64,000 nt of DNA from a bacterium. GTDB taxonomy: Bacteria; Patescibacteriota; Minisyncoccia; Phycocordibacterales; JABMNX01. Every line of letters begins with the position of its first letter. Within the stretch, counting starts at the first letter, position 1. The notes beneath the pieces are model-generated. The model ran no database searches. It was not told the origin of the DNA and worked only from the letters and a program-made list of their open reading frames with translations. Positions 31,596-55,702 of the stretch are shown piece after piece. The position numbers were made by a program, and so were the translations under genes. The DNA lies in assembly GCA_002687905.1 (NCBI GenBank), contig NZBM01000015.1, forward strand, positions 2,811 through 66,810, in the 5' to 3' direction.

Positions 31596-32696
31596 ATGAA
31601 AATTCTCTACATAGCAAATGCACGCATACCAACAGAGCGTGCGCACGGAGTACAAATTATGAAAATGTGTGAGGCATTTTCACAACTCGGCCATTATGTG
31701 GGACTCCTTGTTCCCCTTAGATTTAACCACATAAAAAAGGATCCATTTAGTTATTACTCAATAGACAAAATCTTTGGGATTTCAAGGATATTTTCCATAG
31801 ATTTGGTGAAATTTGGCAGAGTTGGCTTTCTTATTCAAGCACTCTCTTTTTCTATTAGTGTATTTTTTTACGCCTTATTTAAGAAGGTCGATATATATTA
31901 CGGAAGAGATGAAATACCGCTTTCTTTTGTAAGTATCTTAAGGAGAGATGTTATATGGGAGGCTCATATGCCTCGCTATAATCTATTTTCCAGATTTATT
32001 ATAAAGCGTTCAAAAATTTTAGTAGTAATATCAGATGGACTAAAGGATTTTTTTGTAAAAAAAGGTGTGCCAGAGAAAAAAATACTTGTAGCTCGTGATG
32101 GTGTAGATTTAGAAATTTTCAATTCCCTGCCTGAAAAAAATGAATGCAGAGAGCGACTATCGTTAAAGGACGATGAGAAAATAGTCCTTTACGCGGGTCA
32201 TTTATATGACTGGAAGGGTGTAGACATTCTTGCTGAAGCCGCCAAAGGGCTTCATGACTACACGGTCTATTTTGTAGGAGGTACGGATAAAGATATAAAA
32301 GCATTTAGAGAAAAATATACAGAAGTAGCCAATATAAAGACTATCGGCCACAGGGAGCCAAAAGAGATACCTCTCTGGCTTAAATCTGCAGATGTTTTGA
32401 TTCTTCCAAACTCCGGAAAGAGTGAAATCTCAAGGTATTATACTTCTCCTTTAAAACTCTTTGAGTATATGGCTTCAGGAGTTCCGATAGTTGCATCAAA
32501 CTTATCCTCAATTAGAGAAGTTTTAAATGAAGATAATGCGACATTGATTGAACCAGATAATAAGGAAGCTTTATCATCCGGAATAAAGGCGGTTTTCGAG
32601 AAAATGGATTTGTCTAAAAACCGATCCCAAAATGCTTTATTTGATGTTAAAGAGTGCGCGTGGTTAAAGCGTGCGGAAAGAATTTTAAACAGTTAA
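31596..32696 (+). CDS. GT4-family glycosyltransferase
   Basis: C-terminal ...SPLKLFEYMASGVPIVASNLSSIREVL. Confidence 0.7.
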   Translation: MKILYIANARIPTERAHGVQIMKMCEAFSQLGHYVGLLVPLRFNHIKKDPFSYYSIDKIFGISRIFSIDLVKFGRVGFLIQALSFSISVFFYALFKKVDIYYGRDEIPLSFVSILRRDVIWEAHMPRYNLFSRFIIKRSKILVVISDGLKDFFVKKGVPEKKILVARDGVDLEIFNSLPEKNECRERLSLKDDEKIVLYAGHLYDWKGVDILAEAAKGLHDYTVYFVGGTDKDIKAFREKYTEVANIKTIGHREPKEIPLWLKSADVLILPNSGKSEISRYYTSPLKLFEYMASGVPIVASNLSSIREVLNEDNATLIEPDNKEALSSGIKAVFEKMDLSKNRSQNALFDVKECAWLKRAERILNS

Positions 32697-32698
32697 TT

Positions 32699-34063
32699 AT
32701 GAAAACTGTATTTATTATAATAACTAGAGGCTCTCTTGTAATGAATTTCTTTTTTTCTGGAGTGGCGAAGAAACTTCTTAACACCGGTGTTAAACTTATA
32801 GTCCTAAGTCCATTCAGCGAAAGAAAAGAGGTTTTTACTCCCTTCCAACATGAAAATCTCTACATTGAACCTCTACATGATTCTCCCCAAACGACACTCT
32901 CAAGAATCATGCTTGAGCTTCTGAAGGGTGCAATCTTTAACAAGACAATTCATACAAGGTATATCCACCGTATTACTGCGGCCGATTCTCCGCCTTCAAA
33001 ACTATGGTACTTACCAAGGATGCTTTTCTTTGCGCCGCTAAGACTTTTACCAGGTTTCAAGAACCTCATTCGTTTCTTTGATTTTCATCTACAACCACAG
33101 AGAGAAAATGATTACCTATTTGAAAAATATAAGCCGGATCTTGTATTTAGCACTACCCCAAACGGCGTTAGTGATGTCGGAGTTCTGAAGGGAGCGAAAC
33201 GTCACGGAGTAAAGACAATTGCTATGCCAAAGAGTTGGGATACACTTTCAAAGTTTCTCTTTAATACAAAAACAGACCGTCTTTTAGTCTGGAGTTCGTT
33301 TTCAAAGGAACAAGCGCTTAGGTATCAGGGATATAAGGACAGCGAAGTTTCTGTTACTGGTGCTCCTCAGTTTGATTACTATGCGCACAAGGAGAAGATT
33401 ATGGAGCGGGAGGAGTTTTTCAAGAAAAATGGCCTTGATCCAAAGAAGAGACTGATATTGTACGGTTCAACTGGAAGTAATTTGTGTTATGAATCACGCT
33501 ACGCTGATTTAATAAAGAAATATATTGACGAGGAATATCTTGGTAAAGCTCAGGTGTTAATCCGTCCGCATATTGCATATCTTGGAGATGGTGAGCAGTT
33601 TAAACAGCTCAACAAGTACCCTGACTTTGTAGTTGATAAGCAGGAAAAGCAGGACTCGCGGTTTAAGGATAACTGGGATATTTCAGAGGAATACCTGTCT
33701 CATCTCTTTAATTCACTTTCACACGCCGATGTCTGTGTGAATGTTGCGTCTACTCTCACCATTGATGCGACGATGTGTGGTACGCCGGTTATAAACATAA
33801 ACTTTGATTTTCCAGATATAAAGAAAGACATGTCTGTTAAGAGACTCTATAAGTCTGATTATGTAGATGAGATTACAAGCTTTGGCGCTACTTGGGTAGT
33901 AAAGAGTGAGGAAGAGTACCTGAATGCATTAAAAGAGGTAGTTGTGGAAGGAAAGAGAAAAGATGAAGAGATGAAGAAACTTATTAAGCATTTTGCTTGC
34001 GCAAATGACGGGAGGGCAGCAGAGAGGATAGCTAATGCGACATTGAATATGCTAAAAAACTAG
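32699..34063 (+). CDS. hypothetical GT-B-like surface-carbohydrate biosynthesis protein (paralog of the 56058..57473 gene)
   Basis: Collinear similarity to the 56058 gene product, for example DLVFSTTPNGVSD...KTIAMPKSWDTL against DLIFSTSTGGTFE...KTLSIPKSWDNI. Start set at the ATG just after the upstream stop. The track ORF starts at 32654. Confidence 0.35.
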   Translation: MKTVFIIITRGSLVMNFFFSGVAKKLLNTGVKLIVLSPFSERKEVFTPFQHENLYIEPLHDSPQTTLSRIMLELLKGAIFNKTIHTRYIHRITAADSPPSKLWYLPRMLFFAPLRLLPGFKNLIRFFDFHLQPQRENDYLFEKYKPDLVFSTTPNGVSDVGVLKGAKRHGVKTIAMPKSWDTLSKFLFNTKTDRLLVWSSFSKEQALRYQGYKDSEVSVTGAPQFDYYAHKEKIMEREEFFKKNGLDPKKRLILYGSTGSNLCYESRYADLIKKYIDEEYLGKAQVLIRPHIAYLGDGEQFKQLNKYPDFVVDKQEKQDSRFKDNWDISEEYLSHLFNSLSHADVCVNVASTLTIDATMCGTPVININFDFPDIKKDMSVKRLYKSDYVDEITSFGATWVVKSEEEYLNALKEVVVEGKRKDEEMKKLIKHFACANDGRAAERIANATLNMLKN

Positions 34064-34064: not shown

Positions 34065-35033
34065 ATGAGCGATTTCGACACATTTAAAGACAGGATGGTT
34101 GTTATAACGGGTTTTTCAAAGTCTGGGACCACCCTATTACAATCACTTCTCGATTATCATCCAGAATTAGTGGTCTATCCGGAGGAATTTAAGTACTTCA
34201 AAAGGGTTTTTATACAAGGGTACTGCTCGCTTGAAGAGGGCAAGGAGGAAGTAATGAAGCTTCCCGATCAATTCACCCTTGGTCAGAGCGGCGGCGCGGC
34301 AGCAGAGAGGAAGCGCGACTATTCTGATCTTGATCTAAAGTTTTTCAAGAAACGACTAGAAGAATTAGTGGGAAAAGCCAAGACGCATAAAGAAGTGTTT
34401 CTTGCATATATTGAAGCTTTCTACGAGACTCTTAGGAAGTCAGATCGTTTTCCAAAAGGAGTAAAAAAAGCTTGGGTTATCAAAAGACCAAGCGACTACT
34501 ACCTATTTCACCGCTACAAGGAGTGGTTTAATCCGGATAATGTTATATGGATCCATCTCAGAAGAGACCCATATGATAATTTTGGAAGTATTCACTTAAG
34601 TAAGACCATAAATCGCTCAGGGAAGTGGACACCGAGACACTTTGCCCCCGACTGGCTTTTATCAGAGCTTTTCTCCAGGAAGCTTAAGAAAGAATTTAAA
34701 AATTTTCACATTGTTAACTACGAAGATTTAGCAGGTCAGCCTGAGGAGACGATGAGAAGGATCGCAGGTGTTATTGGGATTGATTTTAATGAATCACTAC
34801 TTCAGCCGACACTAAATGGACATCAGTGGGATGGAAACTCGGCTCACGGCACAGTTTTTGTTGGTGTATCGAATGATTCTGTTGGTAAAGCTTCTAGGAG
34901 GCTTGCAGATGAGGTGAGACTTCTCGCGAAAAAGGAACTAAGGAGTTTCAGAAATAAAGTTGTCGCTTGGTGGAGGTATTTAAGGATGATGTTCCACCGG
35001 CATTTTCCCGGGAAGAGGAATAAATTTTATTAA
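34065..35033 (+). CDS. sulfotransferase-family protein
   Basis: 5'-PSB loop ITGFSKSGTTLL (PKSGTT-like) at the N-terminus. Size and basic C-terminus fit. Confidence 0.55.
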   Translation: MSDFDTFKDRMVVITGFSKSGTTLLQSLLDYHPELVVYPEEFKYFKRVFIQGYCSLEEGKEEVMKLPDQFTLGQSGGAAAERKRDYSDLDLKFFKKRLEELVGKAKTHKEVFLAYIEAFYETLRKSDRFPKGVKKAWVIKRPSDYYLFHRYKEWFNPDNVIWIHLRRDPYDNFGSIHLSKTINRSGKWTPRHFAPDWLLSELFSRKLKKEFKNFHIVNYEDLAGQPEETMRRIAGVIGIDFNESLLQPTLNGHQWDGNSAHGTVFVGVSNDSVGKASRRLADEVRLLAKKELRSFRNKVVAWWRYLRMMFHRHFPGKRNKFY

Positions 35034-35069: not shown

Positions 35070-35831
35070 ATGAAATTAAAAACCGCTAGAGGTTATTCAA
35101 TAAAAAAGCTTAGAAAGATTTGCCAGAGTACTGCTCCAAATCCTGCAAGAGAAAGCAAGGTAGGGCTTTTCACAAGAATCTTTTCCATATACTTCACGAA
35201 GTTGTTTCTATATACGCCACTTACCCCTAATCAGATTACGGTAATAGGGATGTCCACATACTTTGTGGGTATCGGTTTTTTATTTTTTAACGAGCCAATT
35301 TATAACGCTATAGCTGTATTTCTTGTATTTATGTCGATTGTTTTTGATGGCTGTGATGGTGAAGTGGCTCGTTTCCGAGAAAGCAGTAGCGCAGTTGGAA
35401 ACCTCTACGCTGAGCCAGTGAGTCACGACATACAGTACGGAGTATCTTTCTTTTTGGTTGGTATTGCAGTGTATTTAGGAAGTGGTGATGTGGTTCATAT
35501 AATCCTTGGTGCCGTCGCAGGTATCAGCAAACTTTTATTCAGGCTCCTTGAGATAAGGACTTGGTATTTGACTCAAAGTGTAAAAATAAAGGAGGAGGAA
35601 ATAGAGAAGCTAAAGCAGGAATACGAGGATCTGCCGGCTTACAAGAGGCTTGTCTATTGGACTAAACAGAATTTGTTCACTCAAAACGGGATTCTTCTCG
35701 TTCTCTTTCTTGTCACAATAGTAAATCGTGTTGATCTACTTTTGTGGTTCTTTGGTGTAGGGAACTTAATCTTTTGGATACTTCTGTTTGGTAAAAAAAC
35801 CTACGAGCTTTCAAAGAATCCTCCAGGGTAA
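35070..35831 (+). CDS. CDP-alcohol phosphatidyltransferase-family membrane protein
   Basis: Multi-TM protein with PNQITVIG and DGCDGEVAR-x8-G (D-G-x2-A-R-x8-G), with partly divergent downstream Asp residues. Confidence 0.5.
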   Translation: MKLKTARGYSIKKLRKICQSTAPNPARESKVGLFTRIFSIYFTKLFLYTPLTPNQITVIGMSTYFVGIGFLFFNEPIYNAIAVFLVFMSIVFDGCDGEVARFRESSSAVGNLYAEPVSHDIQYGVSFFLVGIAVYLGSGDVVHIILGAVAGISKLLFRLLEIRTWYLTQSVKIKEEEIEKLKQEYEDLPAYKRLVYWTKQNLFTQNGILLVLFLVTIVNRVDLLLWFFGVGNLIFWILLFGKKTYELSKNPPG

Positions 35832-35951
35832 ATTTGTACAAAAATTAGTTGAGCTTTTGATGGGGTTCTTGACCTACTATATTTTTAATGGTAAAAATTG
35901 CTGAGAATCTTAACCGAAACCTGCGCATGCGAGCGCCAGTTACGAAGGGAA

Positions 35952-37001
35952 ATGGCTATGAAGAGGCAACTAAGAGTAGGAATTGTCGGGACAGGAAAGA
36001 TGGCGAAAATCCGTGCCGAAGTCATGTCCGGGATAGAGGATGTAACAATGATTGCCGTCGCTCACGGTAGTCCCGAAGCAGACAGAACCATGCGCCTGGT
36101 CGCTTTTGCACGGCAACATGGAATCTCGGATCTGGACAAGTGGAGTATAGGCGACCTTGAGGACGCCGGGCTAGACGCTCTGGTGGTCTGCTCCACAGCT
36201 GAGACCCACTGCGATATCATCGAGGAGGCGGCAAAAGCCGGAGTCCCGTACATTTTCTGCGAGAAGCCCTTTGGGGTGGCAATTCCAGAGATCGATCGTG
36301 CGCTCATTGCGCTTGATGCACACGATGCAAAGCTCCAGGTCGGCTTCAATCGTCGGTTTGATCCGCATTTCCTCGAACTACACGAAAAGGTTCGTGGAGC
36401 TGTTCGGCATCTCGAGATTGTGAGTCTTGACCCGGCGCCGCCATCGCTCGAAAACCTCACTCAGGATCGCGCTCTGATCAGTGAGACCATGGTGCATGAT
36501 TTTGATACCGCATTGTGGTTTCTTGGTGACGGAGTGGACTGCATCTCTGTCCGGGAATCCTGCAAGAATCAGGATCTCAAAAGGGCGGAGCTGTATCAGA
36601 TTGATGCGGCGGTGGCGCTTCTGGGTTTTGAAGACGGTGAGACCTGTACTATCAGGAATCATTGGGGGTCTCCAACCGGGTATCGGCAGGAGATTCGCAT
36701 CTGTGACTCAAACTACGAGGTGTGGGTCACGAATTCCTCGGACAACGGAACAAGTTGGCTGGTTGGAGTTTGTCGTATGCAGTCCGCAGCCCTTCATAAA
36801 GGGTTTCAGGATCGGTATGCGGAATCATACGTTCTGGAGATTCTGGCCTTCCTCAGAAGTGTTCGGGAAGGAGGAGAGATCTCTTCGGGGACTGCCGAAC
36901 AGGCTCGTCAGGTAGCGGTTCTTGTGGATTGCGCACGTGAGTCAGCGTACCTGCATGGCAAGAGTTTCAACCCTCTTGTACAGAACCATGTTGCAGCATG
37001 A
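35952..37001 (+). CDS. Gfo/Idh/MocA-family NAD(P)-dependent oxidoreductase (inositol/sugar dehydrogenase-like), in a GC-rich segment
   Basis: LRVGIVGTGKMAK Rossmann motif. ...CEKPFG (EKP motif). Start at ATG 35952 after AAGGGAAA. The track ORF starts at 35898. GC is visibly higher than the flanks, roughly mid-50s percent against about 40 by eye. Confidence 0.75.
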   Translation: MAMKRQLRVGIVGTGKMAKIRAEVMSGIEDVTMIAVAHGSPEADRTMRLVAFARQHGISDLDKWSIGDLEDAGLDALVVCSTAETHCDIIEEAAKAGVPYIFCEKPFGVAIPEIDRALIALDAHDAKLQVGFNRRFDPHFLELHEKVRGAVRHLEIVSLDPAPPSLENLTQDRALISETMVHDFDTALWFLGDGVDCISVRESCKNQDLKRAELYQIDAAVALLGFEDGETCTIRNHWGSPTGYRQEIRICDSNYEVWVTNSSDNGTSWLVGVCRMQSAALHKGFQDRYAESYVLEILAFLRSVREGGEISSGTAEQARQVAVLVDCARESAYLHGKSFNPLVQNHVAA

Positions 37002-37010
37002 GCTATTCAG

Positions 37011-37047
37011 GGGCGGCACGGATGCATCCGTGCCGCCCTATCTTTTT
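37011..37047 (+). terminator. intrinsic terminator (GGGCGGCACGG-ATGCAT-CCGTGCCGCCC followed by TATCTTTTT)
   Basis: An 11-bp perfect GC-rich stem with a T-tract, 10 nt after the stop. Confidence 0.7.
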
Positions 37048-37080
37048 CAATATTCAAAAATAATGATATAGCTTAATTAT

Positions 37081-37830
37081 ATGCAAGGAATAATATTGGC
37101 AGCGGGATCCGGCACTAGACTAGATCATTTAACTAAAGAGGCACCCAAAGCGCTTATTAGGGTTGGGGAAAGGACGCTTGTTGACTACGCAATTGCCTTT
37201 TTAAATGCGGTTGGTATTGAGGATATTGTGGTTGTTGGAGGAGTGCATTTTGAACAGATTAGAGAGTGTGTGGAGTCATTAGGTAAAGGAATCCGGATAG
37301 TAGAGAACAAAGAGTATAAGAAAGAGTCACTTAGTAGTCTTCAAACAGCGTTACCTCATGTCTCCGGATCATTTCTGCAGATTGATGTGGATTTTATATA
37401 CACATGGGATATTGCAGAGAAAGTTAAGGCGCAACTTAAAGGAAAGGGAATTAAAGCAATTTGTACATCTGACAAAAGAGCAATACCGGAGGACATGGTC
37501 AAGGTGAGTGTTGATGGAGATTTAAAAGTTACAGATATGGAGAAAGACCTCCCAGAATTTAGCTATGGCTATATTGGGATGTTTTATTGCGAGAAGAAGT
37601 CTTTGCCACTTTTACGTGAGCAGACAGAAAAGATACTTGAGGATGCTGGGGAGAGTGGCGCAAAGATGTGGAAAGCGCTCACAACAGTAGCTGAGAGGAC
37701 TGGAGAGGTTCATGTGGGGGATATAGGAGACTTTGATGCAGTTGAGGTTGATACTCCAAAAGAGCGGCAAGAAGCAGAGAAATTTATAAAACGAAATCAG
37801 AAGAGTGTCAATCGCTATTTTGTGGTGTAG
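37081..37830 (+). CDS. LicC-like sugar/alcohol-phosphate nucleotidyltransferase (NTP_transferase family)
   Basis: MQGIILAAGSGTRL...PKALIRVGERTLVDYAIAFL closely resembles the CTP:phosphocholine cytidylyltransferase LicC N-terminus (GxGTRL motif). Confidence 0.7.
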   Translation: MQGIILAAGSGTRLDHLTKEAPKALIRVGERTLVDYAIAFLNAVGIEDIVVVGGVHFEQIRECVESLGKGIRIVENKEYKKESLSSLQTALPHVSGSFLQIDVDFIYTWDIAEKVKAQLKGKGIKAICTSDKRAIPEDMVKVSVDGDLKVTDMEKDLPEFSYGYIGMFYCEKKSLPLLREQTEKILEDAGESGAKMWKALTTVAERTGEVHVGDIGDFDAVEVDTPKERQEAEKFIKRNQKSVNRYFVV

Positions 37831-37869
37831 TTTGTTACCATCTGTATGAGCAAATAATCATATTAGACG

Positions 37870-39744
37870 ATGACACAAAAAGTTGATACTGCGGTGGTTC
37901 TAGCTGCCGGAAAAGGGAAAAGGCTTGACGTATTTGAGACACCAAAACCTCTATTAAAAATTGGTGGCAAATCTCTCATTGTTCACACTCTTGATAATCT
38001 CAAAAAGGCGGGAATCAAGAATGTCTTTATTGTTATACGAAAGGGGGATTTTGTACAAAAGAGGGAGTTGATAGACTATCCCTTAAATATAGAATTTATA
38101 GAACAAACTTCTGGAAGACGAGGAATGCTTGACTCCATGCTTTCTCTTGAAGGGAAAATAGACAAACCTTTTTATGTAACGGTATCAGACCTTATTCTTT
38201 CTCATAATCCATACAAGATGTTTGTGGACTGCGGGGTAGCTGGTAGCGCTGACACAGGCGCTCTAGTCTGTTTTGATAGCAGACAAAATAAAGAATCTGG
38301 TGCAAATACGAAAGTTTTAGCCAGGGACGGTGTTATAAGGGAGATAAGTTCACGACTACCTTCGTATAACGCACTTGATCTTGGGATTTATTATTTCTCA
38401 CCAAAGGCGCACAAGAGTATATGTGCGCTAGCTAAGAAAGATAAAACCATCAGCTCTGTCCCCCAGTTTTTTGTTGTTTACAGTCAGAAGGAGAAGATAC
38501 GTTCTGTCGAGTATTCTGGGGATGCCTGGTTTGATGTAAATATTCCAAAAACTTTTATTCGCGCAGAGCTATATTTAGGGGAAGAAAACAGCGCAGAGTC
38601 AGGTGAAAGCAAAAAAGAGCGCACTAGCCTTAAGAATTTACCCAAGACTGTGCTACTTCATAACAAAAAGGAGACCGTTACAGACATCACTGTTAAAAGA
38701 AATATACTAGAGCGTCTTGATGAATATGAGGTTATACCCTCAGAGTCATACAATTCTCCTCACCATATAATAGTAGACGAAAGCATAGATTCGTTTTTGG
38801 GAAAGCCAATCTTGGATAAACTACTTTCTCTTGGGTATAAGGTTTATAAGCACACAGTAAAAGCAGGTGAAAATGCAAAAAGTATAAATAGCTACGTCAA
38901 ACTATCAGAGGAAATTCTGAACAAGGGAATTGATAAGAAATCAACAATAATTTCAATAGGAGGAGGTTCTGTAAAAGACATGGGGGGCTTTCTTGCTTCG
39001 ACACTCTATAGGGGTATTGGCTTTATAAGCATACCAACAACCATCCTCTCGCAGGCTGATGCCGCAATCGCTCTTAAGCAGGGAGTAAACGGAGGCGATG
39101 GAAAAAATCTTATAGGTTCTTGGTATGCTCCCCTTAAAATAATTGTTGATCCAGCCACAATACTTAAGCTTGATGAGAGGTGGGTAAGCGACGGGCTTGC
39201 TGAGTGTATAAAACAAGGATTTGCCTACGACAAGAAGCTATACAATTTACTCAAAGGCTATAAGGGTGACATGAAAGACCTCGATTTTCTTGAAAGTGTG
39301 CTTAAGCTAGCGATTGAGGATAAGGTAAGGACCATAGAGGAGGACCTTCATGAAGATAAAATAGCTCTGGTCAACCAATATGGGCATGAGTTTGGCCACG
39401 CCGTTGAACACCTTTCTGGGTATGCGTATGGACACGGCGAGTCTGTGGCCATAGGTATGAGAGTGTCAGCGGAGCTCTCTTACATTTTGGGAATATGCGA
39501 TCGTGGTGTGGTTGATGCACACATTGAGCTTCTTGAGAAATACAATCTACCCCATCAGGTGCCTAAAGTTATTAGCCCAGAGGATATATTAAATTCTCTT
39601 AAGTACAATAAAAAGTACTACAGTGGAGAGCCGCGCTTTGTTCTTGTCGACAAGATAGGGTCAGTCTGGAGAGACAAGACATACTACACAGTTAATTGCA
39701 GGGACGAATTCATAAAGCAAGCCGTCGAGGCGAGTTACAACTAA
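37870..39744 (+). CDS. fusion protein: N-terminal nucleotidyltransferase + C-terminal 3-dehydroquinate-synthase-family sugar-phosphate cyclase domain
   Basis: N-terminus VVLAAGKGKRL...PKPLLKIGGKSLI (NTP transferase). C-terminal about 330 aa with IGGGSVKDMGGFLAS...RGIGFISIPTTILSQADAAIALKQGVNGG.GKNLIGSWYAP and GHEFGHAVEH...GHGESVAIGM, which are the hallmark DHQS / DOIS / EEVS-superfamily motifs. Confidence 0.65.
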   Translation: MTQKVDTAVVLAAGKGKRLDVFETPKPLLKIGGKSLIVHTLDNLKKAGIKNVFIVIRKGDFVQKRELIDYPLNIEFIEQTSGRRGMLDSMLSLEGKIDKPFYVTVSDLILSHNPYKMFVDCGVAGSADTGALVCFDSRQNKESGANTKVLARDGVIREISSRLPSYNALDLGIYYFSPKAHKSICALAKKDKTISSVPQFFVVYSQKEKIRSVEYSGDAWFDVNIPKTFIRAELYLGEENSAESGESKKERTSLKNLPKTVLLHNKKETVTDITVKRNILERLDEYEVIPSESYNSPHHIIVDESIDSFLGKPILDKLLSLGYKVYKHTVKAGENAKSINSYVKLSEEILNKGIDKKSTIISIGGGSVKDMGGFLASTLYRGIGFISIPTTILSQADAAIALKQGVNGGDGKNLIGSWYAPLKIIVDPATILKLDERWVSDGLAECIKQGFAYDKKLYNLLKGYKGDMKDLDFLESVLKLAIEDKVRTIEEDLHEDKIALVNQYGHEFGHAVEHLSGYAYGHGESVAIGMRVSAELSYILGICDRGVVDAHIELLEKYNLPHQVPKVISPEDILNSLKYNKKYYSGEPRFVLVDKIGSVWRDKTYYTVNCRDEFIKQAVEASYN

Positions 39745-39746
39745 TT

Positions 39747-40697
39747 ATGAATGAAGAGGATTCTATAAAGGCTTACTTAGCTTCAAATTATTTGGTGCAA
39801 CCGGATAAGGTTTCCTACATCAATGAAGGGGTAACCAACACCAACTATTTAGTCGAAACCTCGGACGGTAAATACCTATTTAAAATTTACAATTTTAAGA
39901 GTGAGGATCAGGTGCAGTTTGAAGTTAATGTACTCGAAGAGCTTAGGAGGCACGATTTTCCGTCCCCAAAAGTTATAAGTAGAAAAGACAAATTAAATAT
40001 CGGAGTGTACAAGAAAAAGCCGAGCTTACTTTATGTCTATATTGACGGTGGTGTTAATAAAGACTGGGATGGATTCATGATAAAGAAGGTGGGAAAATAT
40101 ATGGGCAAGAAACACTCTTTACTTAAAGATTTTCCTGACCGCTCAAAGAGTCACACTTTCGATATAGATGAGACTAAAAAACTTGTTAGGGAAGGAAGGA
40201 GTCGTTTTGCTGAAGCAAGTTTTCCAGAGTATGAGAGCCTTCTGTCTTTTGTAGAGAAGAATCTAACCGGTCTTTCTTTGTCTAATGATCTACCTAAAGG
40301 AGTTACACATCACGATATTAAACACGAGAATGTGATTCTAAACGACAAAGAAATTGCTGGGATTATTGATTTTGATCTTTCTTATTATGGTGTTCTGATA
40401 AATGATATAGCGACCACAATCATATGGGAGTGCTTTGATGGCGACGAGATGAATATGGAGAAAGCGCAGTCATTCATTGATGGATATGAGGAAGAAAGGC
40501 CGTTGACTTCTGTCGAAAAAGATAATCTTTGTGAGACAATACATTTTCGGCTAGTCAGAGAGGTGTTCAGCAGCCCCTTTGATGTGCTTCCAAACTATAT
40601 TGAAATAACAAAGCCTCGTTCAGATGAATTTAGGAGGCGCGCAGAGAGATTTCAGGACGCAAAAGCCAACATAAGATTTTCTTTCAAAGGAGACTAA
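39747..40697 (+). CDS. APH/choline-kinase-fold small-molecule kinase (LicA/NahK-like phosphotransferase)
   Basis: Brenner/catalytic loop VTHHDIKHENVIL and IDFDLSYYG (DFG-like). Start at ATG 39747, 3 nt after the upstream stop. The track ORF starts at 39696. Confidence 0.65.
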   Translation: MNEEDSIKAYLASNYLVQPDKVSYINEGVTNTNYLVETSDGKYLFKIYNFKSEDQVQFEVNVLEELRRHDFPSPKVISRKDKLNIGVYKKKPSLLYVYIDGGVNKDWDGFMIKKVGKYMGKKHSLLKDFPDRSKSHTFDIDETKKLVREGRSRFAEASFPEYESLLSFVEKNLTGLSLSNDLPKGVTHHDIKHENVILNDKEIAGIIDFDLSYYGVLINDIATTIIWECFDGDEMNMEKAQSFIDGYEEERPLTSVEKDNLCETIHFRLVREVFSSPFDVLPNYIEITKPRSDEFRRRAERFQDAKANIRFSFKGD

Positions 40698-45466: not shown

Positions 45467-47269
45467 ATGATTTTTGTTAATAAACTATTTAGCAGGTATG
45501 TAGAAATATTTCAACTAGCCTGGAAGGGTTTTGACGCATACCGTTATCAGATACTTTTGCTTGCATCTCTTGGTTTTGTAGGAGGACTCTTGGAGAGTAT
45601 AGGTATTAATGCTGTTATTCCACTTCTTTCTTTTATTATTGGCACAGGTCCTACTGCGGATTTAGACTTTATATCTGAAGCGATACGCTCCGTATTTTTA
45701 TTTTTACATATACCATTTAAGTTTAGATACTTGTTGGTATTTATCATTCTCCTATTTATTTTAAAGGCGGTTGTTACTTTTGTAATTACATACATTACTG
45801 TAAAAATAACCGCAAACTATGAGAGTGAGGTTAGAAGCAAGTTATTTAGGGAGACTCTAAAAGCCAAATGGGGCTACCTTGTTTCTCAAAAATTAGGACA
45901 CCTTGAGACCATCTTGATGACAAACGTAAAATCAAGTTCAGAGATGCTTGAGCGCGTTAGTCAGATGCTCGTACTGTTTTCAGGACTTCTTGTTTATATG
46001 TTGGTTGCGATAAATATTTCTCCAAAAATAACTATATTTGCACTTCTGCTCGGCGGGGTTTTATTTTTTGTTCTTAAACCAGTATTGCGCGCGGCTCGCG
46101 GAACGGCACACGGTATTTTAAATGCAACAAAAGAAGTGGCGCACTATGTTAACGAAAATGTTGTTGGTATTAAAACGGTGAAGACTACGAGCTCTGAAAA
46201 CCCTGTCTCAGAAATTGGAACTAATCTATTTGAGACACTTCGAGTGCTACGAATAAGGTCTACTCTTCTAAGAAGTATTAATAATGTTTTAGTACAACCT
46301 ATCAGCCTCATTTTCATTAGCGTTATATTTGCATTTTCATTTAAGACCGAAGGTTTTGTATTCAGCGCATTTATTGCAATTGTTTACCTTATTCAGAGAA
46401 TATTTACACATTTCCAGACGCTACAGACCAACTTACACAGAATGAACGAATCTGCCCCCTACCTTAGGAATGTAGTTGAGTATGAAGAAGAGCTCCGCAA
46501 AAACATTGAACCTCGGGTAGGTAAAAGTGGAGGATTTGAGTTTAGGAATACTCTTTCGTTTAGCAATGTTAATTTCTCATATGAAAATAATGGACCAGTT
46601 TTAAAAGACATAAGTTTCAAAATAGAGAAGGGAGATATGATTGGAATCATTGGTCCTTCTGGAAGCGGGAAAACAACCGTAGTAGATCTTGTGTTAAGAA
46701 TGTTTGTGCCCGATAGAGGGGAAATAGAAGTAGATAATAAAAATATTGAAGAAATTGATGTTGATGAATGGAGAAGAAATATTGGCTATGTATCACAAGA
46801 TATGTTTCTAATAAATGACACGATAGAGAACAATATAAAATTCTATGACGACTCTATTTCTAATGAAGATATAAGAGAGGCGGCAAAAAAAGCACACATA
46901 TTAGATTTTATTGAAGGAACCGAGAACAAGTTTCAAACTAATATAGGCGAGAGAGGGGTAAGGTTATCCTTTGGCCAGAGACAACGTATTGTTCTTGCAA
47001 GAGTACTGGCTCGCAAGCCAGAATTGCTAGTTCTAGACGAGGCAACAAGTGCGCTTGATAATGAATCGGAGGAGCAGATTCAAAAAGCAATTGAGGGTCT
47101 TCGTGGGAATATAACGACACTCATTGTCGCCCATAGACTCTCAACAATAGAAAATGCAACAAAATTAATTGTTCTTAAGGACGGGGAAATATTGGAAGAG
47201 GGTGATCCCAAAAAACTTATTAAAGATGAAGGTTCTTATTTTTACAAAGTTCACAATATTCGAAAATAA
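45467..47269 (+). CDS. ABC exporter, fused permease + ATPase (MsbA/ABCB-type)
   Basis: Six-TM N-terminal domain. Walker A GPSGSGKTT, signature LSFGQRQRIVLARVL, Walker B LLVLDEATSALD. Confidence 0.85.
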   Translation: MIFVNKLFSRYVEIFQLAWKGFDAYRYQILLLASLGFVGGLLESIGINAVIPLLSFIIGTGPTADLDFISEAIRSVFLFLHIPFKFRYLLVFIILLFILKAVVTFVITYITVKITANYESEVRSKLFRETLKAKWGYLVSQKLGHLETILMTNVKSSSEMLERVSQMLVLFSGLLVYMLVAINISPKITIFALLLGGVLFFVLKPVLRAARGTAHGILNATKEVAHYVNENVVGIKTVKTTSSENPVSEIGTNLFETLRVLRIRSTLLRSINNVLVQPISLIFISVIFAFSFKTEGFVFSAFIAIVYLIQRIFTHFQTLQTNLHRMNESAPYLRNVVEYEEELRKNIEPRVGKSGGFEFRNTLSFSNVNFSYENNGPVLKDISFKIEKGDMIGIIGPSGSGKTTVVDLVLRMFVPDRGEIEVDNKNIEEIDVDEWRRNIGYVSQDMFLINDTIENNIKFYDDSISNEDIREAAKKAHILDFIEGTENKFQTNIGERGVRLSFGQRQRIVLARVLARKPELLVLDEATSALDNESEEQIQKAIEGLRGNITTLIVAHRLSTIENATKLIVLKDGEILEEGDPKKLIKDEGSYFYKVHNIRK

Positions 47270-47353: not shown

Positions 47354-48409
47354 GTGAAAAAGACTATTATGATGGTCGCGGGCGACCCTGGGCCTTCAGG
47401 ACTTTTTGAAGTATTGGCAGATGAATTGACTAGACTGGGTCATGTGGTCAATCTTCTTGTTCGCAAAGATCTACCCGACGTAGTTTCTGGTAAGCATATC
47501 GACTCTATAAAAACATCCAATGCCCTTTTAGTTGGGATGTCCTCAACCAGTGAGGTAGCGGCAAGCGAGATCGCGTGTGCTGAACTGGCAATCAGTTATG
47601 GAGTGCCGGTGGGTCTTTTACCCGATACATTTGGAGTGATCAGCCGACAGGGTTTTGAGGAAGTTGGGAGAAAGGCTAGTTTTGCCTGTGTTCTCAACGA
47701 AGACGAAAAATACCACGATAGGTCGGTAGTTAAGCCTGAAATTTCTTACGTTACAGGGGATCCGAGATGGGACATCTATTTTGCGCCTCCTCGGCTTACT
47801 AGAGAAGAAGTTTTTGGCCGACTGGGAGTGGGTCTTGATCGTGAACTTGTTCTTTTCGCAGGATCAAAATTCTCAATAATGACTGCGGGACCATTAATGA
47901 TCGGACTTACTGCGATCCATGGTCTTGACCCGTCAGCAGCGCGTATACATGCGGTTCTGGGGCTACACCCAGCAGATGAATGCACCGCAGGTGAATATGA
48001 ACCCCAGGTCACAAACCTATTCAGGAATTCGCCGGTCAGTTTTTCTATCTTACCTGATGAATTAAAGACCGACGAGATGCTTCCACATGCCGTGCTTGTA
48101 ATTGGCACGTCGTCGTCTACGACCATTCACACAGCGTGTAGGCGTAAACCCGGCTTATGGCCGGGTGGCAATCCTTGGGAAATGGAGCTTTATGCAAGTA
48201 TCCGCACCTTTGCTTGGCCCCCTTGTGATCAAGGAGCTTTTCTACGTCGGAAAGGTCTCACCCCCGAGCTTCTTGGGGAACTACTTGATCCCGATTCCAA
48301 AGTCCGTAAAGATATGCTTTTGGCGCAAGAGAAGATGTTCCCGAAGCCGGAAGGAAGCGAAACTGCAGTCTCTGAAATGACGAGGGTCATCCTGGCGCAC
48401 GCCAAGTGA
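47354..48409 (+). CDS. hypothetical protein in a GC-rich segment (GTG start)
   Basis: A long ORF with a GAGGGAG Shine-Dalgarno site before the GTG. Composition is markedly GC-richer than its neighbours. No confident family. A GT-B-like N-terminus is possible. Confidence 0.4.
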   Translation: MKKTIMMVAGDPGPSGLFEVLADELTRLGHVVNLLVRKDLPDVVSGKHIDSIKTSNALLVGMSSTSEVAASEIACAELAISYGVPVGLLPDTFGVISRQGFEEVGRKASFACVLNEDEKYHDRSVVKPEISYVTGDPRWDIYFAPPRLTREEVFGRLGVGLDRELVLFAGSKFSIMTAGPLMIGLTAIHGLDPSAARIHAVLGLHPADECTAGEYEPQVTNLFRNSPVSFSILPDELKTDEMLPHAVLVIGTSSSTTIHTACRRKPGLWPGGNPWEMELYASIRTFAWPPCDQGAFLRRKGLTPELLGELLDPDSKVRKDMLLAQEKMFPKPEGSETAVSEMTRVILAHAK

Positions 48410-48431
48410 AGTTCAGGTTTCGGAAGGCCCA

Positions 48432-48465
48432 AACGGCGAGGACTACGTCCTCGCCGTTTCCTTAT
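48432..48465 (+). terminator. hairpin AACGGCGAGGA-CTACG-TCCTCGCCGTT (weak T-tract)
   Basis: An 11-bp stem 20 nt after the 47354..48409 stop. Confidence 0.4.
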
Positions 48466-48514
48466 GAAATATAGTTAGTTATAGGGTTATAATATACGTT
48501 CAGTATTTAAATAT

Positions 48515-49462
48515 ATGGAAAATAAGATACTAATTTCTGCTCCCTACATGTACAGGGAAATGGAAAAGATAAAGGAAATGCTCAAGGACTACCCTTTTGA
48601 TGTGGATTGGATTCATGTTGAAGAGAGGCTTGAAGAGGAAGATTTACTCCCGGTAATTCATAAATATCAGGGAATTCTTTGTGGTGACGATAGAATTACA
48701 AAGAAAGTTATTGATAAAGCAGAAAAGCTCAAAGCTATTGTTAAGTGGGGGACAGGGATTGATTCAATAGACAAGGAGTATGCGGAAACAAAAGGTATTA
48801 CTGTATTTAGAACTCCAGGAGCATTCACCGAGCCCGTATCAGATACAACCATTGCAATGATGCTAAACGAGGTACGTGGGCTTGTTAGAAATGATCGAGT
48901 GGTAAAAAGTGGAGAGTGGGAAAAACCCCAAAGCTACATGTTAAGGGAGAAAGTAATCGGAATAATTGGCTTTGGTGACATTGGCAAGGAGGTTACGAGA
49001 AAACTCAAGGCCTTCGGTCCGAAGGTACTAGTAAACGATATAAAAGAGATGGATCCCAAAATATTTAATGATTTGGATGTTGAACACACTTCAAAAGATG
49101 AGATTTATGAAAACTGCGACATTATTACAGTGCATTGTGATCTAAATCCTGAAAGTGAGCATGTTTTAAATAAGGAATCTTTCTCCAAGATGAAAAAGAA
49201 GCCGTACGTTATAAACAATGCGAGAGGTCCACTTATAAAAGAAGATGAGCTTGTTGAAGCACTGGAGAGTGGGCAAGTATCTGGGGCGGGACTCGATGTG
49301 TTTGAGGATGAGCCTCTACCGGTGGATTCGCCTCTTCGAAAAATGGATAACGTTATCGCGTCTTGTCACAATACAAACAGTAGCCCAATGTGCTGGGATG
49401 CAGTACATAAAAATTCACTCAATATGATGGTCGAAGGTCTTGATCTTAAAATGTCTAATTAA
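48515..49462 (+). CDS. D-isomer-specific 2-hydroxyacid dehydrogenase (NAD-binding)
   Basis: GIIGFGDIGKEV Rossmann motif. Catalytic His/Glu/Arg region. Confidence 0.75.
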   Translation: MENKILISAPYMYREMEKIKEMLKDYPFDVDWIHVEERLEEEDLLPVIHKYQGILCGDDRITKKVIDKAEKLKAIVKWGTGIDSIDKEYAETKGITVFRTPGAFTEPVSDTTIAMMLNEVRGLVRNDRVVKSGEWEKPQSYMLREKVIGIIGFGDIGKEVTRKLKAFGPKVLVNDIKEMDPKIFNDLDVEHTSKDEIYENCDIITVHCDLNPESEHVLNKESFSKMKKKPYVINNARGPLIKEDELVEALESGQVSGAGLDVFEDEPLPVDSPLRKMDNVIASCHNTNSSPMCWDAVHKNSLNMMVEGLDLKMSN

Positions 49463-49466
49463 AAGC

Positions 49467-50423
49467 ATGGAGGACAAAGACATTGTTGTATATACAGGAC
49501 CAGAGGACAGCTTTCGTTTTGCTGAGAAGGTGCTTGGCGAGAAATTTAGTGTTGTGCGAGTGGAGCCAACCGAAGACTCTCTTTTTCCCAAGTTTGTGAA
49601 ATGCGTCGCCTTTCTTGACGCATCAATGAAAGTCCGTATACCAGCCGATCTCATCAATAAAGCGCAAAGTTTAAAACTTGTGGTCACTGCAACAACGGGG
49701 GCTGATCATATCGATAAAGACGCTCTTGGAAAGAGGCAGATTCCTCTTCTGACTCTAAAAGGAGAGACAGAGATTCTCAATAGTTTTAGCGGAGCGGCGG
49801 AACTGTCATGGCTTTTCCTTATGGCATGTGCGCGAAAATTTCGCGGAGCATTAGATCATGTCCAGGATGGAAAATGGGAGCGAACAGAATTTCCCGGAAT
49901 CATGCTAGCCAACAAAACTCTAGGAATAATCGGTATTGGTCGTCTTGGATCTTGGATGGCTCGGTATGGACACGCTTTTAAGATGAACGTACAAGCCCAC
50001 GACCCATTCGCGGAAACTTTTCCAGCCGAAGTTAAAAAAATTGACCTCGACACACTTCTTAAAACATCTGATTTTATCAGTGTTCACGTTCACCTTTCTG
50101 ACGATACACGCAACCTTTTAAGCGCGGATAAAATAGCGAAAATTAAGAAAGGCGCGTCACTTATTAATACCTCACGAGGGGAGATAGTTGACGAAGAGGC
50201 TCTTGTTGAAGCGCTTGAGAGAGGCGATATCGCAGCGGTTGGAGTTGATGTGCTAGCTGGCGAGCCGGAGATTGATAAAAATGTACTGTGGCAGTATTCA
50301 AAAACACACGAAAAAGTTCTTATTACCCCGCATATAGGAGGTTTTTGTCCTGAGTCGGTAGATCGAGTGGTTGAGTTTTCTGCAGAGCGCATTCTTAAGT
50401 ACTTCAATGAGGGGCAATCATGA
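49467..50423 (+). CDS. D-isomer-specific 2-hydroxyacid dehydrogenase (second paralog)
   Basis: LGIIGIGRLGSWMA...INTSRGEIVDEEAL. Start at ATG 49467. The track ORF starts at 49440. Confidence 0.75.
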   Translation: MEDKDIVVYTGPEDSFRFAEKVLGEKFSVVRVEPTEDSLFPKFVKCVAFLDASMKVRIPADLINKAQSLKLVVTATTGADHIDKDALGKRQIPLLTLKGETEILNSFSGAAELSWLFLMACARKFRGALDHVQDGKWERTEFPGIMLANKTLGIIGIGRLGSWMARYGHAFKMNVQAHDPFAETFPAEVKKIDLDTLLKTSDFISVHVHLSDDTRNLLSADKIAKIKKGASLINTSRGEIVDEEALVEALERGDIAAVGVDVLAGEPEIDKNVLWQYSKTHEKVLITPHIGGFCPESVDRVVEFSAERILKYFNEGQS

Positions 50424-52012: not shown

Positions 52013-52021
52013 AAGTTCAGC

Positions 52022-53020: not shown

Positions 53021-53597
53021 TTTACCGAAAGAAATAGTAATCCTTGATCTTGAAATAACCACATGGGAAGGAGCCATTCAGCGTAGATGGTCTGGAGAAG
53101 GGGAGCATATGGAAGTTATTCAGATGGGAGCTGCAAAAGTGGAGACTGATAATTTTGAGACATTAGATACGTTTAATTGTTTTGTTAGGCCGAGGGTAAA
53201 TCCTATACTTTCCGAGTACTGTAAGGAACTTACAGGAATTAAACAGGAACAAGTAGATAGCGCAGAAGAGTTTCCTGTGTTTATAAAGGAATTCGCCGAA
53301 TGGTGTGGGGACCTTAGTTTGTACTGTTATGGAAAGATAAAAAAAATACCAACTATGCTTGATAGGGAAGCAATTATTGAAAATTCCAAATTGGCTAGCA
53401 TTTCAAGTCCATTTACAGAAGATAAATTTAATAATATTAATCTCATTTTTCATAAGCACGGCTATAACGTCAGGCAGAGTGGATCAACCCCAGAGGCTTT
53501 TGGTCTTAAGCTTCAAAATAGACCACATAATGCGATGAATGATGTGAATGGACTTATCACAGGACTTAAAGCTCTAAAGAAAGCAGTTAGTAATTGA
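53013..53597 (+). CDS. DEDDh-family 3'-5' exonuclease (DnaQ/ERI-1/KapD-like)
   Basis: Exo I motif IVILDLEIT. The length fits a single exonuclease domain. Confidence 0.55.
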   Translation: MFNLPKEIVILDLEITTWEGAIQRRWSGEGEHMEVIQMGAAKVETDNFETLDTFNCFVRPRVNPILSEYCKELTGIKQEQVDSAEEFPVFIKEFAEWCGDLSLYCYGKIKKIPTMLDREAIIENSKLASISSPFTEDKFNNINLIFHKHGYNVRQSGSTPEAFGLKLQNRPHNAMNDVNGLITGLKALKKAVSN

Positions 53598-54433: not shown

Positions 54434-54436
54434 AGG

Positions 54437-55699: not shown

Positions 55700-55702
55700 G
55701 TT

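Follow-up and report, generated by a model that had tools for sequence, protein, structure and literature searches.

A predicted nucleotide-activated cyclitol cassette built around a nucleotidyltransferase-cyclase fusion in a patescibacterial surface-glycan island

The window analyzed here, a stretch of 64,000 nucleotides from contig NZBM01000015.1 of a patescibacterial genome (assembly GCA_002687905.1), carries at positions 35070 to 40697 five co-directional, tightly spaced open reading frames (ORFs), all on the plus strand. They encode a membrane protein of the CDP-alcohol phosphotransferase family, a Gfo/Idh/MocA oxidoreductase, a free-standing nucleotidyltransferase (NTase2), a 624-aa protein in which a second nucleotidyltransferase (NTase) is fused to a cyclase domain, and a kinase of the APH fold (Table 1). 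We propose that this cassette makes a nucleotide-activated cyclitol by a five-step route, a reading to which we give a probability of about 60%. The proposal was drawn wholly from comparative genomics; the observed elements beneath it are the domain identities, the residue pattern of the cyclase, its clade, the association of the genes, and natural fusions among them. An earlier, sequence-only reading of this DNA had named the five genes and their folds, and all were found where it had placed them, each with Pfam support. Its suggestion that a carbocyclic sugar is synthesized, phosphorylated, and activated agrees with the comparative data, whereas the attachment of that sugar to a glycan or a lipid is what the gene context suggests.

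The fusion protein and its cyclase domain

Domain calls were made with Pfam at its gathering scores and with NCBIfam at its equivalog cut-offs, and solved relatives were taken from sequence matches to the PDB. In the fusion, the NTase domain covers aa 8-233 (nt 37891-38568), a linker spans aa ~241-270, and the cyclase domain covers aa 272-605 (nt 38683-39684). An AlphaFold2 model has two confident domains and a weaker linker (pLDDT 86.5, pTM 0.71). In Foldseek comparisons, its cyclase domain matched 3-dehydroquinate synthase (DHQS) and the synthase of 2-deoxy-scyllo-inosose (DOIS) with TM-scores of 0.87-0.91, and no PDB chain spanned both domains. The fusion is real. Nine contigs of several sources carry the identical 624-aa protein, full-length homologues with the same architecture form about 58 protein clusters (32-53% identity), and 66 of the 80 loci returned from a GTDB sample of one genome per species hold the full fusion. 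An assembly artefact, a possibility raised beforehand, is ruled out by this conservation over two phyla and by the nine identical records. A HMMER pass over 1.84 billion representatives gave ~20 full-length fusion clusters at 50% identity, and the family, which recurs in about 70 species, is rare but widespread. Its carriers are Patescibacteria (Falkow-, Magasanik- and Taylorbacteria, Saccharibacteria), many Myxococcota (the cultured Lujinxingia vulgaris TMQ2, Persicimonas, Haliangium, Kofleriaceae, Polyangia), a few Gammaproteobacteria, and one metagenome-assembled genome (MAG) of the Cytophagia. Databases label the protein 'iron-containing alcohol dehydrogenase' or, in the case of JGI, '3-dehydroquinate synthase'. 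Searches of the available literature gave nothing relevant on the fusion or on cyclitols together with Patescibacteria, which fits the earlier impression that the architecture had not been described.

The cassette copy nearest to that of the window, L089, is 67% identical to it in the cyclase, and its Gfo, NTase2, NTase, and cyclase genes are all fragmented. This is the one relative that looks split (P0028/L089), and the split is probably due to frameshift errors, since the contig is full of broken ORFs. Furthermore, four multidomain proteins, P0143 (2653 aa), P0147 (832 aa), P0156 (711 aa), and P0170 (795 aa), contain a related cyclase domain, internal or C-terminal, that is 30-40% identical to the fusion family.

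The cyclase domain belongs to the sugar-phosphate cyclase superfamily, as both members of the Pfam pair PF01761 (DHQ_synthase, aa 329-438, 110.4 bits against a gathering score of 24.2) and PF24621 (DHQS_C, aa 442-582, 99.7 bits against 27.6) are above threshold. Its top-scoring NCBIfam model is aroB (TIGR01357), at 274.5 bits and under the equivalog cut-off of 305. Fe-ADH_2 gave 26.2 bits, short of its gathering score of 28, and glycerol-1-phosphate dehydrogenase (G1PDH, NF002022) gave 33.8 bits against a cut-off of 413. The profile comparison that had been suggested for the C-terminal half thus points to a DHQS-type cyclase, not to Fe-ADH or G1PDH. [quoted passage not shown] All the cyclase motifs quoted in the sequence-only reading are present, namely, GGGSVKDMGGF (aa 364-374), PTTILSQADAA (389-399), GKNLIG (411-416), GHEFGHAVEH (505-514), and HGESVAIGM (522-530).

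The active site was compared with 22 reference cyclases that accompany PMC4426668 as source data (DHQS, aminoDHQS, DOIS, EEVS, EVS, DDGS, and EboD-like proteins, with a glycerol dehydrogenase outgroup), aligned with MAFFT and numbered after the DHQS of A. nidulans (AnDHQS), as verified on its sequence. Eleven residues (R130, D146, K152, N162, E194, K197, K250, H271, H275, H287, and K356), which make up the complete metal, phosphate-binding, and catalytic complement, are kept in the window protein and invariant in the 66 GTDB fusions, with two alignment gaps at K356. In the window protein, the metal ligands are E445, H506, and H522 (AnDHQS E194, H271, and H287), the phosphate-binding set is R381, K403, N413, H510, and K581 (R130, K152, N162, H275, and K356), and the Gly-rich NAD+ motif GGGSVKD lies at aa 364-370, its G364-G366 invariant in a 20-member family alignment. 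Around the ligand H506, A499 stands at the position of AnDHQS R264, N502 at that of L267, Q503 at that of N268, and E507 at that of S/T272. [quoted passage not shown] None of the 66 fusions keeps it, the position being A, S, G, or E throughout, and residue 268 is Gln in 63 of them and Asn in one; all 8 DHQS references carry both R264 and N268. By class, residue 268 is N in DHQS, EVS, and aminoDHQS, E in DOIS, D in EEVS and EboD-like proteins, and A in DDGS, and Gln268 is found in none of the characterized classes. HMMER alignments to five DHQS crystal sequences, gap-free over this stretch, show the same substitutions.

These residues bear directly on the simplest alternative, that of an ordinary DHQS of the shikimate pathway fused by chance to a nucleotidyltransferase. 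The JGI label, the rank of aroB among the NCBIfam models, and an overall identity highest to archaeal and H. pylori DHQS (31-32%) speak for it. We nevertheless consider it barely credible, and a true DHQS was rejected, because the score stays below the equivalog cut-off, R264 is missing in 66/66 and N268 replaced in 65/66 fusions, the family forms a clade of its own, and neither the window cassette nor any of the inspected related loci contains an aro or shikimate gene.

Another alternative takes the domain for a simple NAD(P)-dependent dehydrogenase of the AraM/G1PDH kind; the fused NTase would then cytidylylate a polyol phosphate to a CDP-alditol for TagF-like enzymes. Six residues that serve phosphate binding, elimination, and aldol cyclization (K152, N162, K250, H275, K356, and R130) are invariant in the fusions, while in the glycerol dehydrogenase outgroup only K250 and K356 of these align, and the aroB score far exceeds that of G1PDH, with Fe-ADH_2 under its gathering score. 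On these scores and cyclase-specific residues, an Fe-ADH or G1PDH dehydrogenase was rejected. This alternative would account for the fusion, as its two steps are consecutive, and it can also draw on the nearby TagF-like genes, on the place of G1PDH in the same superfamily, and on the weak Fe-ADH_2 match. It would, however, leave the conserved kinase and the extra reductase without a role, and we give it only a slim chance of being right.

Membership in the other characterized classes was rejected on residues as well. The window protein has K250, Q268, and H275, against M250 and D268 in EEVS or D264 and A268 in DDGS, and P or M at 275; likewise, its A264, Q268, and K356 do not match the DOIS signature of G264, E268 (BtrC Glu243), and N356. 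In a neighbor-joining tree (Kimura-corrected, 357 columns, 200 bootstraps), the fusion family and its cyclase-only sisters are monophyletic with 92-94% bootstrap. DOIS is the nearest characterized clade, with a bootstrap of only 49% for the sister relationship; the DOIS clade itself has 99.5%, and the window protein lies outside it. The phylogenetic placement and active-site mapping that had been called for separate the domain from DHQS, EEVS, and DDGS, and the profile scores and cyclase-specific residues separate it from G1PDH. As judged from its residues and its place in the tree, the domain is a genuine sugar-phosphate cyclase that belongs to a new clade and is neither a dehydroquinate synthase nor an EEVS. 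We favor a hexose-6-phosphate-type substrate, since the small residue at 264 together with K250 and H275 resembles DOIS more than the sedoheptulose-7-phosphate cyclases; a C7 substrate (heptulose 7-phosphate) would be the second candidate. The residue pattern is nearest to DOIS and not diagnostic for substrate.

The cyclase-only members of the clade include L079 9878-13219 (Paraburkholderia atlantica), L085 9932-12027 (Rhodopseudomonas palustris BisB18), L081, L082, L084, and L078. They are 38-41% identical to the window cyclase domain, and all have Q268, none has R264, and most have E264/K267. The cyclases of L079 and L085 adjoin a short-chain dehydrogenase/reductase (SDR) in O-antigen/exopolysaccharide loci (many GT4, UDP-GlcNAc 2-epimerase, RgpF, ABC transporter, RmlD), and in these two loci no kinase or nucleotidyltransferase was found adjacent to the cyclase gene. 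Carbocyclic sugars have been reported in the lipopolysaccharides of Burkholderia and Bradyrhizobium, and the cyclase-only loci may be related to these sugars.

The N-terminal half of the fusion matches the NTP_transferase profile suggested for residues 1-250, at aa 8-233 (49.1 bits; NTP_transf_3, 49.9 bits). It has the elements of the NTP_transferase fold, a G-x-G-x-R-L loop, a Lys, and two metal-binding Asp: the nucleotide loop is LAAGKGKRL at aa 11-19, and the catalytic G14, K26, D107, and D222 are invariant in the family alignment. Its best PDB match (43 bits) is IPCT, the inositol-phosphate cytidylyltransferase of 2xme/4mnd, and its best NCBIfam nucleotidyltransferase match is IPCT/DIPPS (NF041135), at 80.7 bits and thus far under the cut-off of 580, so that the likeness falls short of an equivalog-level IPCT match.

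Partner genes and natural fusions across genomes

The neighborhood of the fusion was examined by searching component seeds in the ORFs of all loci, with proximity taken as within 4 kb, and 61 fusion loci had usable flanks. A reductase is present in 56 of these, a kinase in 54, and both in 52, so the search of other genomes found the neighborhood conserved along with the fusion. Two arrangements recur. Type II, in 41 loci of Myxococcota, consists of the fusion, an SDR, and a PfkB kinase. Type I, carried by Patescibacteria, three Gammaproteobacteria, and the Cytophagia MAG (where the transferase was not detected), runs in the order CDP-alcohol transferase, Zn-ADH or SDR, fusion, APH kinase, NTase2, and methyltransferase(s), and often ends with TagF-like genes and an ABC exporter. 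The reductase slot is thus filled by three unrelated families (Zn-ADH, SDR, Gfo) and the kinase slot by two (APH, PfkB). Whether the kinase is APH (L015, L016, L046, L088) or PfkB, it comes after fusion and SDR in an unchanged order, and Zn-ADH, fusion, APH also occurs. None of the SDR, Zn-ADH, PfkB, and APH partners reached a curated NCBIfam cut-off. Several of the genes are physically joined in nature: NTase-cyclase-APH in P0030 (L001 8001-10790; 929 aa, on 23 contigs), NTase-cyclase-SDR in P0037 (878 aa), CDP-alcohol transferase-APH in L062 8311-9987, and NTase2-methyltransferase in L004 10788-12113. Nothing speaks more strongly for a single route shared by all four activities than the persistence of the slots as non-homologous genes swap in and out of them.

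The doubt expressed beforehand that the neighbors could belong to unrelated pathways is answered by this joint occurrence and by the fusions P0030, P0037, and L062. In its explicit form, this alternative has two pathways adjoining, a Lic-like phospho-alcohol module for phosphocholine or phosphoethanolamine (APH kinase, NTase2, methyltransferase, and CDP-alcohol transferase) and a separate cyclase/NTase/reductase unit. The best solved relative of NTase2 is indeed LicC, the kinase of L088 also matches Choline_kinase, and NTase2, the methyltransferase, and the transferase co-occur only in Type I and are absent from Myxococcota. However, the APH kinase is the very component that ties the two halves together, being fused to the cyclase protein in P0030 and holding, after fusion and SDR, the position that PfkB has in the 41 Type II loci; moreover, Type I without it would have no kinase to feed the fused NTase. 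A Pfam scan of 50 window ORFs, which are nearly all those of at least 150 aa between ~12.3 and 60 kb, save 57477-58247 (minus strand) and the window's two ends, gave no LicD match. We therefore regard two adjoining pathways as unlikely, although not negligibly so, and prefer a single route for the conserved genes.

The Gfo/Idh/MocA gene of the window starts at ATG 35952 or 35958, and its longest ORF runs from TTG 35898. It reaches 193 bits against iolG (TIGR04380; cut-off 355). Among its PDB matches at E <= 1e-10, 11 of 13 were deposited as inositol or myo-inositol dehydrogenases (best 4hkt, 134 bits), and the other two, 3ezy and 3ec7, have generic or putative dehydrogenase names only. Its nearest homologues are 33-37% identical, the named ones being myo-inositol 2-dehydrogenases, and no homologue above 37% identity was found in 5.8 billion proteins outside its own cluster. 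As noted from the sequence alone, the gene is GC-rich, its GC of 53.6% (GC3 55%) contrasting with 36-42% GC in all neighbors and 41% in the genome, and it is flanked by the two largest gaps of the block (120 and 79 nt). The close relative L089 shares it. The gene is an orphan that came in by horizontal transfer and took the place of the Zn-ADH or SDR found there in other cassettes, and its nearest relatives imply that the refilling of the slot drew on an enzyme of the inosose/inositol type. We infer from gene linkage that the dehydrogenase is an integral step, the ketoreduction of the cyclase product, and not a bystander.

The kinase starts 2 nt past the fusion stop and has the motifs HxDxxxxN (aa 188-195) and DFD (aa 208); it scores 138 bits against type-II homoserine kinase in NCBIfam (cut-off 271) and 71.7 bits against PDB 2ppq. 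NTase2, to which the earlier label 'LicC-like' applies well, has LicC 1jyk (52 bits), PntC 6pd1 (38 bits), and IPCT 2xme (34.8 bits) as its best PDB matches and is 24% identical to the fused NTase domain. It occurs in 12 of the 61 loci, all Type I, where it travels with the transferase and the methyltransferase, and it is part of a patescibacterial add-on module. The methyltransferase, whose gene in the window has a 1-nt overlap with that of the kinase, follows NTase2 in most Type I loci; it probably belongs to the patescibacterial cassette and may methylate the cyclitol or its activated form.

The CDP-alcohol transferase passes the PF01066 gathering score of 22, and among solved structures it is closest to AF2299 (4o6m, 37.7 bits), followed by PIPS and IPCT/DIPPS. 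It adjoins the fusion cassette in 15 of the 61 loci, all Type I, and its subfamily has ~105 members, of which the close ones adjoin the cassette and a 35%-identical outlier does not. Its motif, DGCDGEVAR-x8-G-x2-Y-x-EPVSHDIQYG, is encoded at nt 35346-35441. The first half (D-x2-D-G-x2-A-R) is present as DGCDGEVAR at aa 93-101 and reads D-[GA]-x-D-G-E-x-[AS]-R in 20/20 cassette copies. The second half departs from the canonical G-x3-D-x3-D and reads G-x2-Y-x-EP-x-SHD-x-QY (G-x4-E-x4-D), again in 20/20 cassette copies (L001-L071); in HMMER alignments, the Glu falls on D3 of AF2299, the His on D4, and the Asp one residue later. Being strictly conserved, the variant half-motif is probably functional, though non-canonical. 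Many Type I loci have a TagF-like gene no more than about 10 kb away from the fusion, and the TagF-like proteins are alternative candidate users of the CDP-activated alcohol.

The proposed route and its closest known systems

In the route that we propose, the NAD+/metal-dependent cyclase domain would first turn a carboxylate-free sugar phosphate into a keto-cyclitol, expelling phosphate, as suggested by its fold and residues. A ketoreductase, here Gfo/Idh/MocA and elsewhere Zn-ADH or SDR, would then reduce the ring ketone to a cyclitol, as the gene linkage suggests, and a kinase (APH here, PfkB in Myxococcota) would rephosphorylate it. The IPCT-like domain of the fusion would join cyclitol phosphate and nucleotide, probably from CTP, to give a CDP-cyclitol. 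In Patescibacteria only, the CDP-alcohol phosphotransferase would move the phospho-cyclitol to a membrane-bound acceptor (a lipid or a lipid-linked surface glycan), with NTase2 and the methyltransferase providing accessory modification. Myo-inositol-phosphate synthase (MIPS) keeps its phosphate. A DHQS-type cyclase, by established chemistry, releases phosphate and leaves a keto-carbocycle (PMC5133447); because the phosphate is lost and a ketone left, a reductase and a kinase are needed before any nucleotidyltransferase can act. Since the CDP-cyclitol donor would be soluble, the acceptor is likely a lipid or a lipid-linked glycan, reached by a Kennedy-like route.

Inositol-type affinities appear in four independent parts: the fused NTase, the transferase, the reductase, and a gene of the inositol monophosphatase (IMPase) family in locus L086. 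None of them is at an equivalog cut-off, and they are best taken as possible leads on the substrate class rather than as assignments. The L086 gene (PF00459; 10894-11832, minus strand) has HisN, FBPase/IMPase, and IMPase as its best NCBIfam matches, and the cassette there also has three ORFs without a Pfam match. These affinities lead us to put forward, tentatively and at somewhat less than even odds, a more specific version, a MIPS-free route to an inositol-like head group. The new cyclase clade, fused to a cytidylyltransferase, would make a CDP-(deoxy)inositol-type cyclitol; the Myxococcota would hold a stand-alone NDP-cyclitol unit, and the Patescibacteria would attach a phospho-cyclitol to a membrane lipid or to a surface glycan through the variant transferase.

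The closest known system is the IPCT/DIPPS pair, CTP:L-myo-inositol-1-phosphate cytidylyltransferase with CDP-inositol:inositol-1-phosphate transferase, of the di-myo-inositol-phosphate pathway of hyperthermophiles (PDB 2xme, 4mnd), in which a cyclitol phosphate is CDP-activated and then handed to a CDP-alcohol phosphotransferase. These enzymes are the best PDB and NCBIfam matches of the fused NTase and among the best, with AF2299 and PIPS, of the transferase. In the cassette, however, the cyclitol would come from a phosphate-losing DHQS-type cyclase and not from MIPS, with a reductase and a kinase added as a consequence. The NTase is fused to the cyclase and not to the transferase, the transferase has the variant half-motif, the scores are far under the cut-off, and the setting is a surface-glycan island of mesophilic Patescibacteria.

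This relationship raises the possibility that the product is a soluble phosphodiester compatible solute like di-myo-inositol phosphate, formed from CDP-cyclitol and cyclitol phosphate and then dephosphorylated, with no surface decoration. Besides the IPCT/DIPPS matches of the fused NTase and the transferase, the IMPase-family gene of L086 would fit it, as would the saline habitats of several carriers of the three-gene form (Lujinxingia, Persicimonas). That IMPase gene is found in one examined locus only, and the Myxococcota form has no DIPPS-like gene nearby. The patescibacterial cassette always lies amid glycosyltransferases, TagF-like enzymes, NeuABC genes, and an ABC exporter, and we accordingly give the solute a small chance in comparison with the activated cyclitol for envelope use.

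Other systems share parts of the scheme. A Kennedy-type CDP-inositol route of Bacteroides vulgatus/Prevotella, predicted and unconfirmed, combines MIPS, an NTP transferase, a CDP-alcohol phosphatidyltransferase, and a HAD protein (Heaver et al. 2022, PMC9246714). As in the cassette, an NTP_transferase-family enzyme and a CDP-alcohol phosphotransferase are clustered there with the carbocycle maker, and a phospho-cyclitol head group is proposed; the cassette differs in its sugar-phosphate cyclase in place of MIPS, its extra reductase and kinase, its lack of a HAD hydrolase, and its phyla. The validamycin and acarbose pathways to NDP-valienol use an EEVS (ValA/AcbC), kinases (ValC/AcbM/AcbU), and a nucleotidyltransferase (ValB/VldB/AcbR) and lead to GDP-valienol (PMC9200736). 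They have in common with our route a cyclase, ring tailoring that includes ketoreduction, a cyclitol kinase, and a nucleotidyltransferase yielding an NDP-cyclitol donor. They differ in the EEVS residues given above (M250, D268, P/M275) and in a GlgC-like instead of an IPCT-like NTase, and they belong to actinomycete secondary-metabolite clusters, not to an envelope context; among the Pfam-scanned ORFs, no GT20/GT5-like pseudoglycosyltransferase was identified in the cassette.

In the LicA/LicC/LicD system, as here, an APH/choline-kinase-fold kinase precedes a LicC-like cytidylyltransferase (NTase2 in the cassette) and a phospho-alcohol goes to a surface polymer. The cassette, without a LicD found, has a cyclase, a reductase, and a second, IPCT-like NTase in its conserved unit, and its kinase is tied to the cyclase by fusion and position. 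The Lic and Val parallels drawn in the sequence-only reading thus held in part: the order of steps is shared with Val, but IPCT/DIPPS and the CDP-inositol Kennedy-type route are closer, no LicD was found among the scanned ORFs, and the cyclase is not an EEVS. DOIS (BtrC), the nearest clade in the tree, also has a small residue at 264 and keeps K250 and H275; in contrast, the cassette cyclase has Gln268 instead of Glu and Lys356 instead of Asn, and there are no aminoglycoside genes nearby. The Npun_5231-type cyclase is similar in being DHQS-annotated and yet proved to be a C6-cyclitol synthase, in having a membrane-transferase partner, and in lying outside classical antibiotic clusters. It differs in H250, S264, and D268, and it is partnered by a UbiA prenyltransferase and other proteins in place of an NTase, a kinase, and a CDP-alcohol transferase. 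As for the joining of non-consecutive steps, HldE is a bifunctional heptose 7-phosphate kinase/heptose 1-phosphate adenylyltransferase (PfkB kinase and cytidylyltransferase-like fold) that likewise fuses non-consecutive nucleotide-sugar steps in one polypeptide, the NTase acting last, though its domains differ and its product is a true sugar, not a carbocycle.

Several observations weigh against the five-step route. Substrate, nucleotide, and acceptor are all predictions from comparative genomics. Nine of the 61 loci have no detectable reductase or kinase nearby; most of the exceptions are at contig ends, an explanation that does not extend to L011, L041, L050, L068, and also L090. The Myxococcota cassette has no transferase nearby to take its product, and the patescibacterial one has two nucleotidyltransferases, of which NTase2 is without an assigned role. 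Furthermore, the nearest characterized relatives of the APH kinase are homoserine and choline kinases, not cyclitol kinases, and the chemistry of the transferase may differ with its non-canonical EPxSHD half-motif. Finally, the tree is neighbor-joining only, with its low support for DOIS as sister.

Genomic setting and biological meaning

The block is packed like an operon, with gaps of 36, 120, 79, 39, and 2 nt and then the overlap with the methyltransferase gene, and it lies inside a long plus-strand surface-glycan island of ~19 to 60 kb. The island contains many GT4 glycosyltransferases, a DegT aminotransferase, epimerases, an Asn-synthase-like gene, a sulfotransferase, TagF-like genes, NeuB/NeuC/NeuA, and an ABC exporter of a type that also follows the cassette in L001, L004, L088, and L090. 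For the fusion and its neighbors, proteins with 100% identity exist in a 'Candidatus Pacebacteria' MAG. The sulfotransferase directly upstream of the cassette suggests that the surface glycan is also sulfated, glycan sulfation being uncommon among bacteria.

Table 1. Features of the cassette and its surroundings, in window coordinates
Feature	Position	Strand	Evidence
TagF-like (Glyphos_transf) CDP-alditol phosphotransferase	32654..34063	+	Pfam PF04464, 36.2 bits
Sulfotransferase, directly upstream of the cassette	34065-35033		Pfam Sulfotransfer_3, 59.7 bits
CDP-alcohol phosphotransferase-family membrane protein, 253 aa	35070..35831	+	Pfam PF01066 (CDP-OH_P_transf), 35.9 bits
Gfo/Idh/MocA oxidoreductase, inositol-dehydrogenase type	35952..37001	+	Three Pfam Gfo/Idh/MocA domains
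Free-standing LicC-like nucleotidyltransferase (NTase2), 249 aa	37081..37830	+	Pfam NTP_transf_3, 61.7 bits
Bifunctional NTase::cyclase fusion, 624 aa	37870..39744	+	Pfam NTP_transferase + DHQ_synthase + DHQS_C
Diagnostic active-site stretch of the cyclase	39364..39390	+	A499, N502, Q503, H506, E507
APH-fold small-molecule kinase, 316 aa	39747..40697	+	Pfam APH, 93.4 bits
SAM-dependent methyltransferase, Cys-rich N-terminal segment	40697..41656	+	Pfam Methyltransf_23, 93.9 bits
ABC exporter (ABC_membrane + ABC_tran)	45467..47269	+	Pfam

A second sugar-activation module occupies 47354-57473, and its GC is higher, at 0.43-0.47 across 47-53 kb. Within it lie two D-2-hydroxyacid dehydrogenases (48515-50423), a TPP-dependent enzyme (50420-52012), another Gfo/Idh/MocA protein (52022-53020), an RNase_T-like exonuclease, a second CTP_transf_3 cytidylyltransferase (53594-54433), another TagF-like gene (56058-57473), and a 420-aa ORF without a Pfam match. 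Upstream of the glycan island and close to it lie a TrwB/TraG-like coupling ATPase (15942-17654) and then a secreted-type protein that has Lamin-tail and PKD domains (17663-19003). Elsewhere in the window, a bacterial 16S rRNA gene at 7908-9607 measures 1700 nt against a 1533-position model, so one or more insertions add ~170 nt to it. Some 700 nt downstream of it, at 10321-10395, is a tRNA-Ile(GAT), which is followed directly by protein-coding ORFs and by no 23S rRNA gene.

The known settings of sugar-phosphate cyclases are the shikimate pathway and the making of secondary metabolites (aminoglycosides, acarbose, validamycin, sunscreens), and NDP-cyclitols are useful donors for glycosidase-resistant pseudo-glycans. 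NDP-cyclitols themselves (GDP-valienol, from ValA/ValC/ValB and AcbC/AcbU/AcbR; PMC9200736) and CDP-inositol from IPCT/DIPPS are already known. What is new, as far as sequence comparison can tell, is a cyclase clade with the signature 'no R264, Q268' fused to an IPCT-like nucleotidyltransferase, together with its apparent coupling to a variant CDP-alcohol phosphotransferase, its setting in patescibacterial envelope-glycan loci, and its compact three-gene form in Myxococcota. The signature provides a simple re-annotation rule for hundreds of '3-dehydroquinate synthase' and 'iron-containing alcohol dehydrogenase' entries, and the presence of the three-gene form in the cultured L. vulgaris TMQ2 makes the question open to direct testing.

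If the proposed route is correct, it would extend the sugar-phosphate cyclases to cell-surface chemistry. In the more specific, inositol-like version, this would be the first of them assigned to cell-envelope biosynthesis, and the cyclase-only cousins in the O-antigen loci of Burkholderia and Rhodopseudomonas would then point to a wider, hidden use of carbocyclic sugars on bacterial surfaces. Patescibacteria attach to host cells through their cell surface, the chemistry of which is, to our knowledge, almost wholly undescribed, and a phospho-cyclitol decoration would be a concrete, searchable molecule on it.

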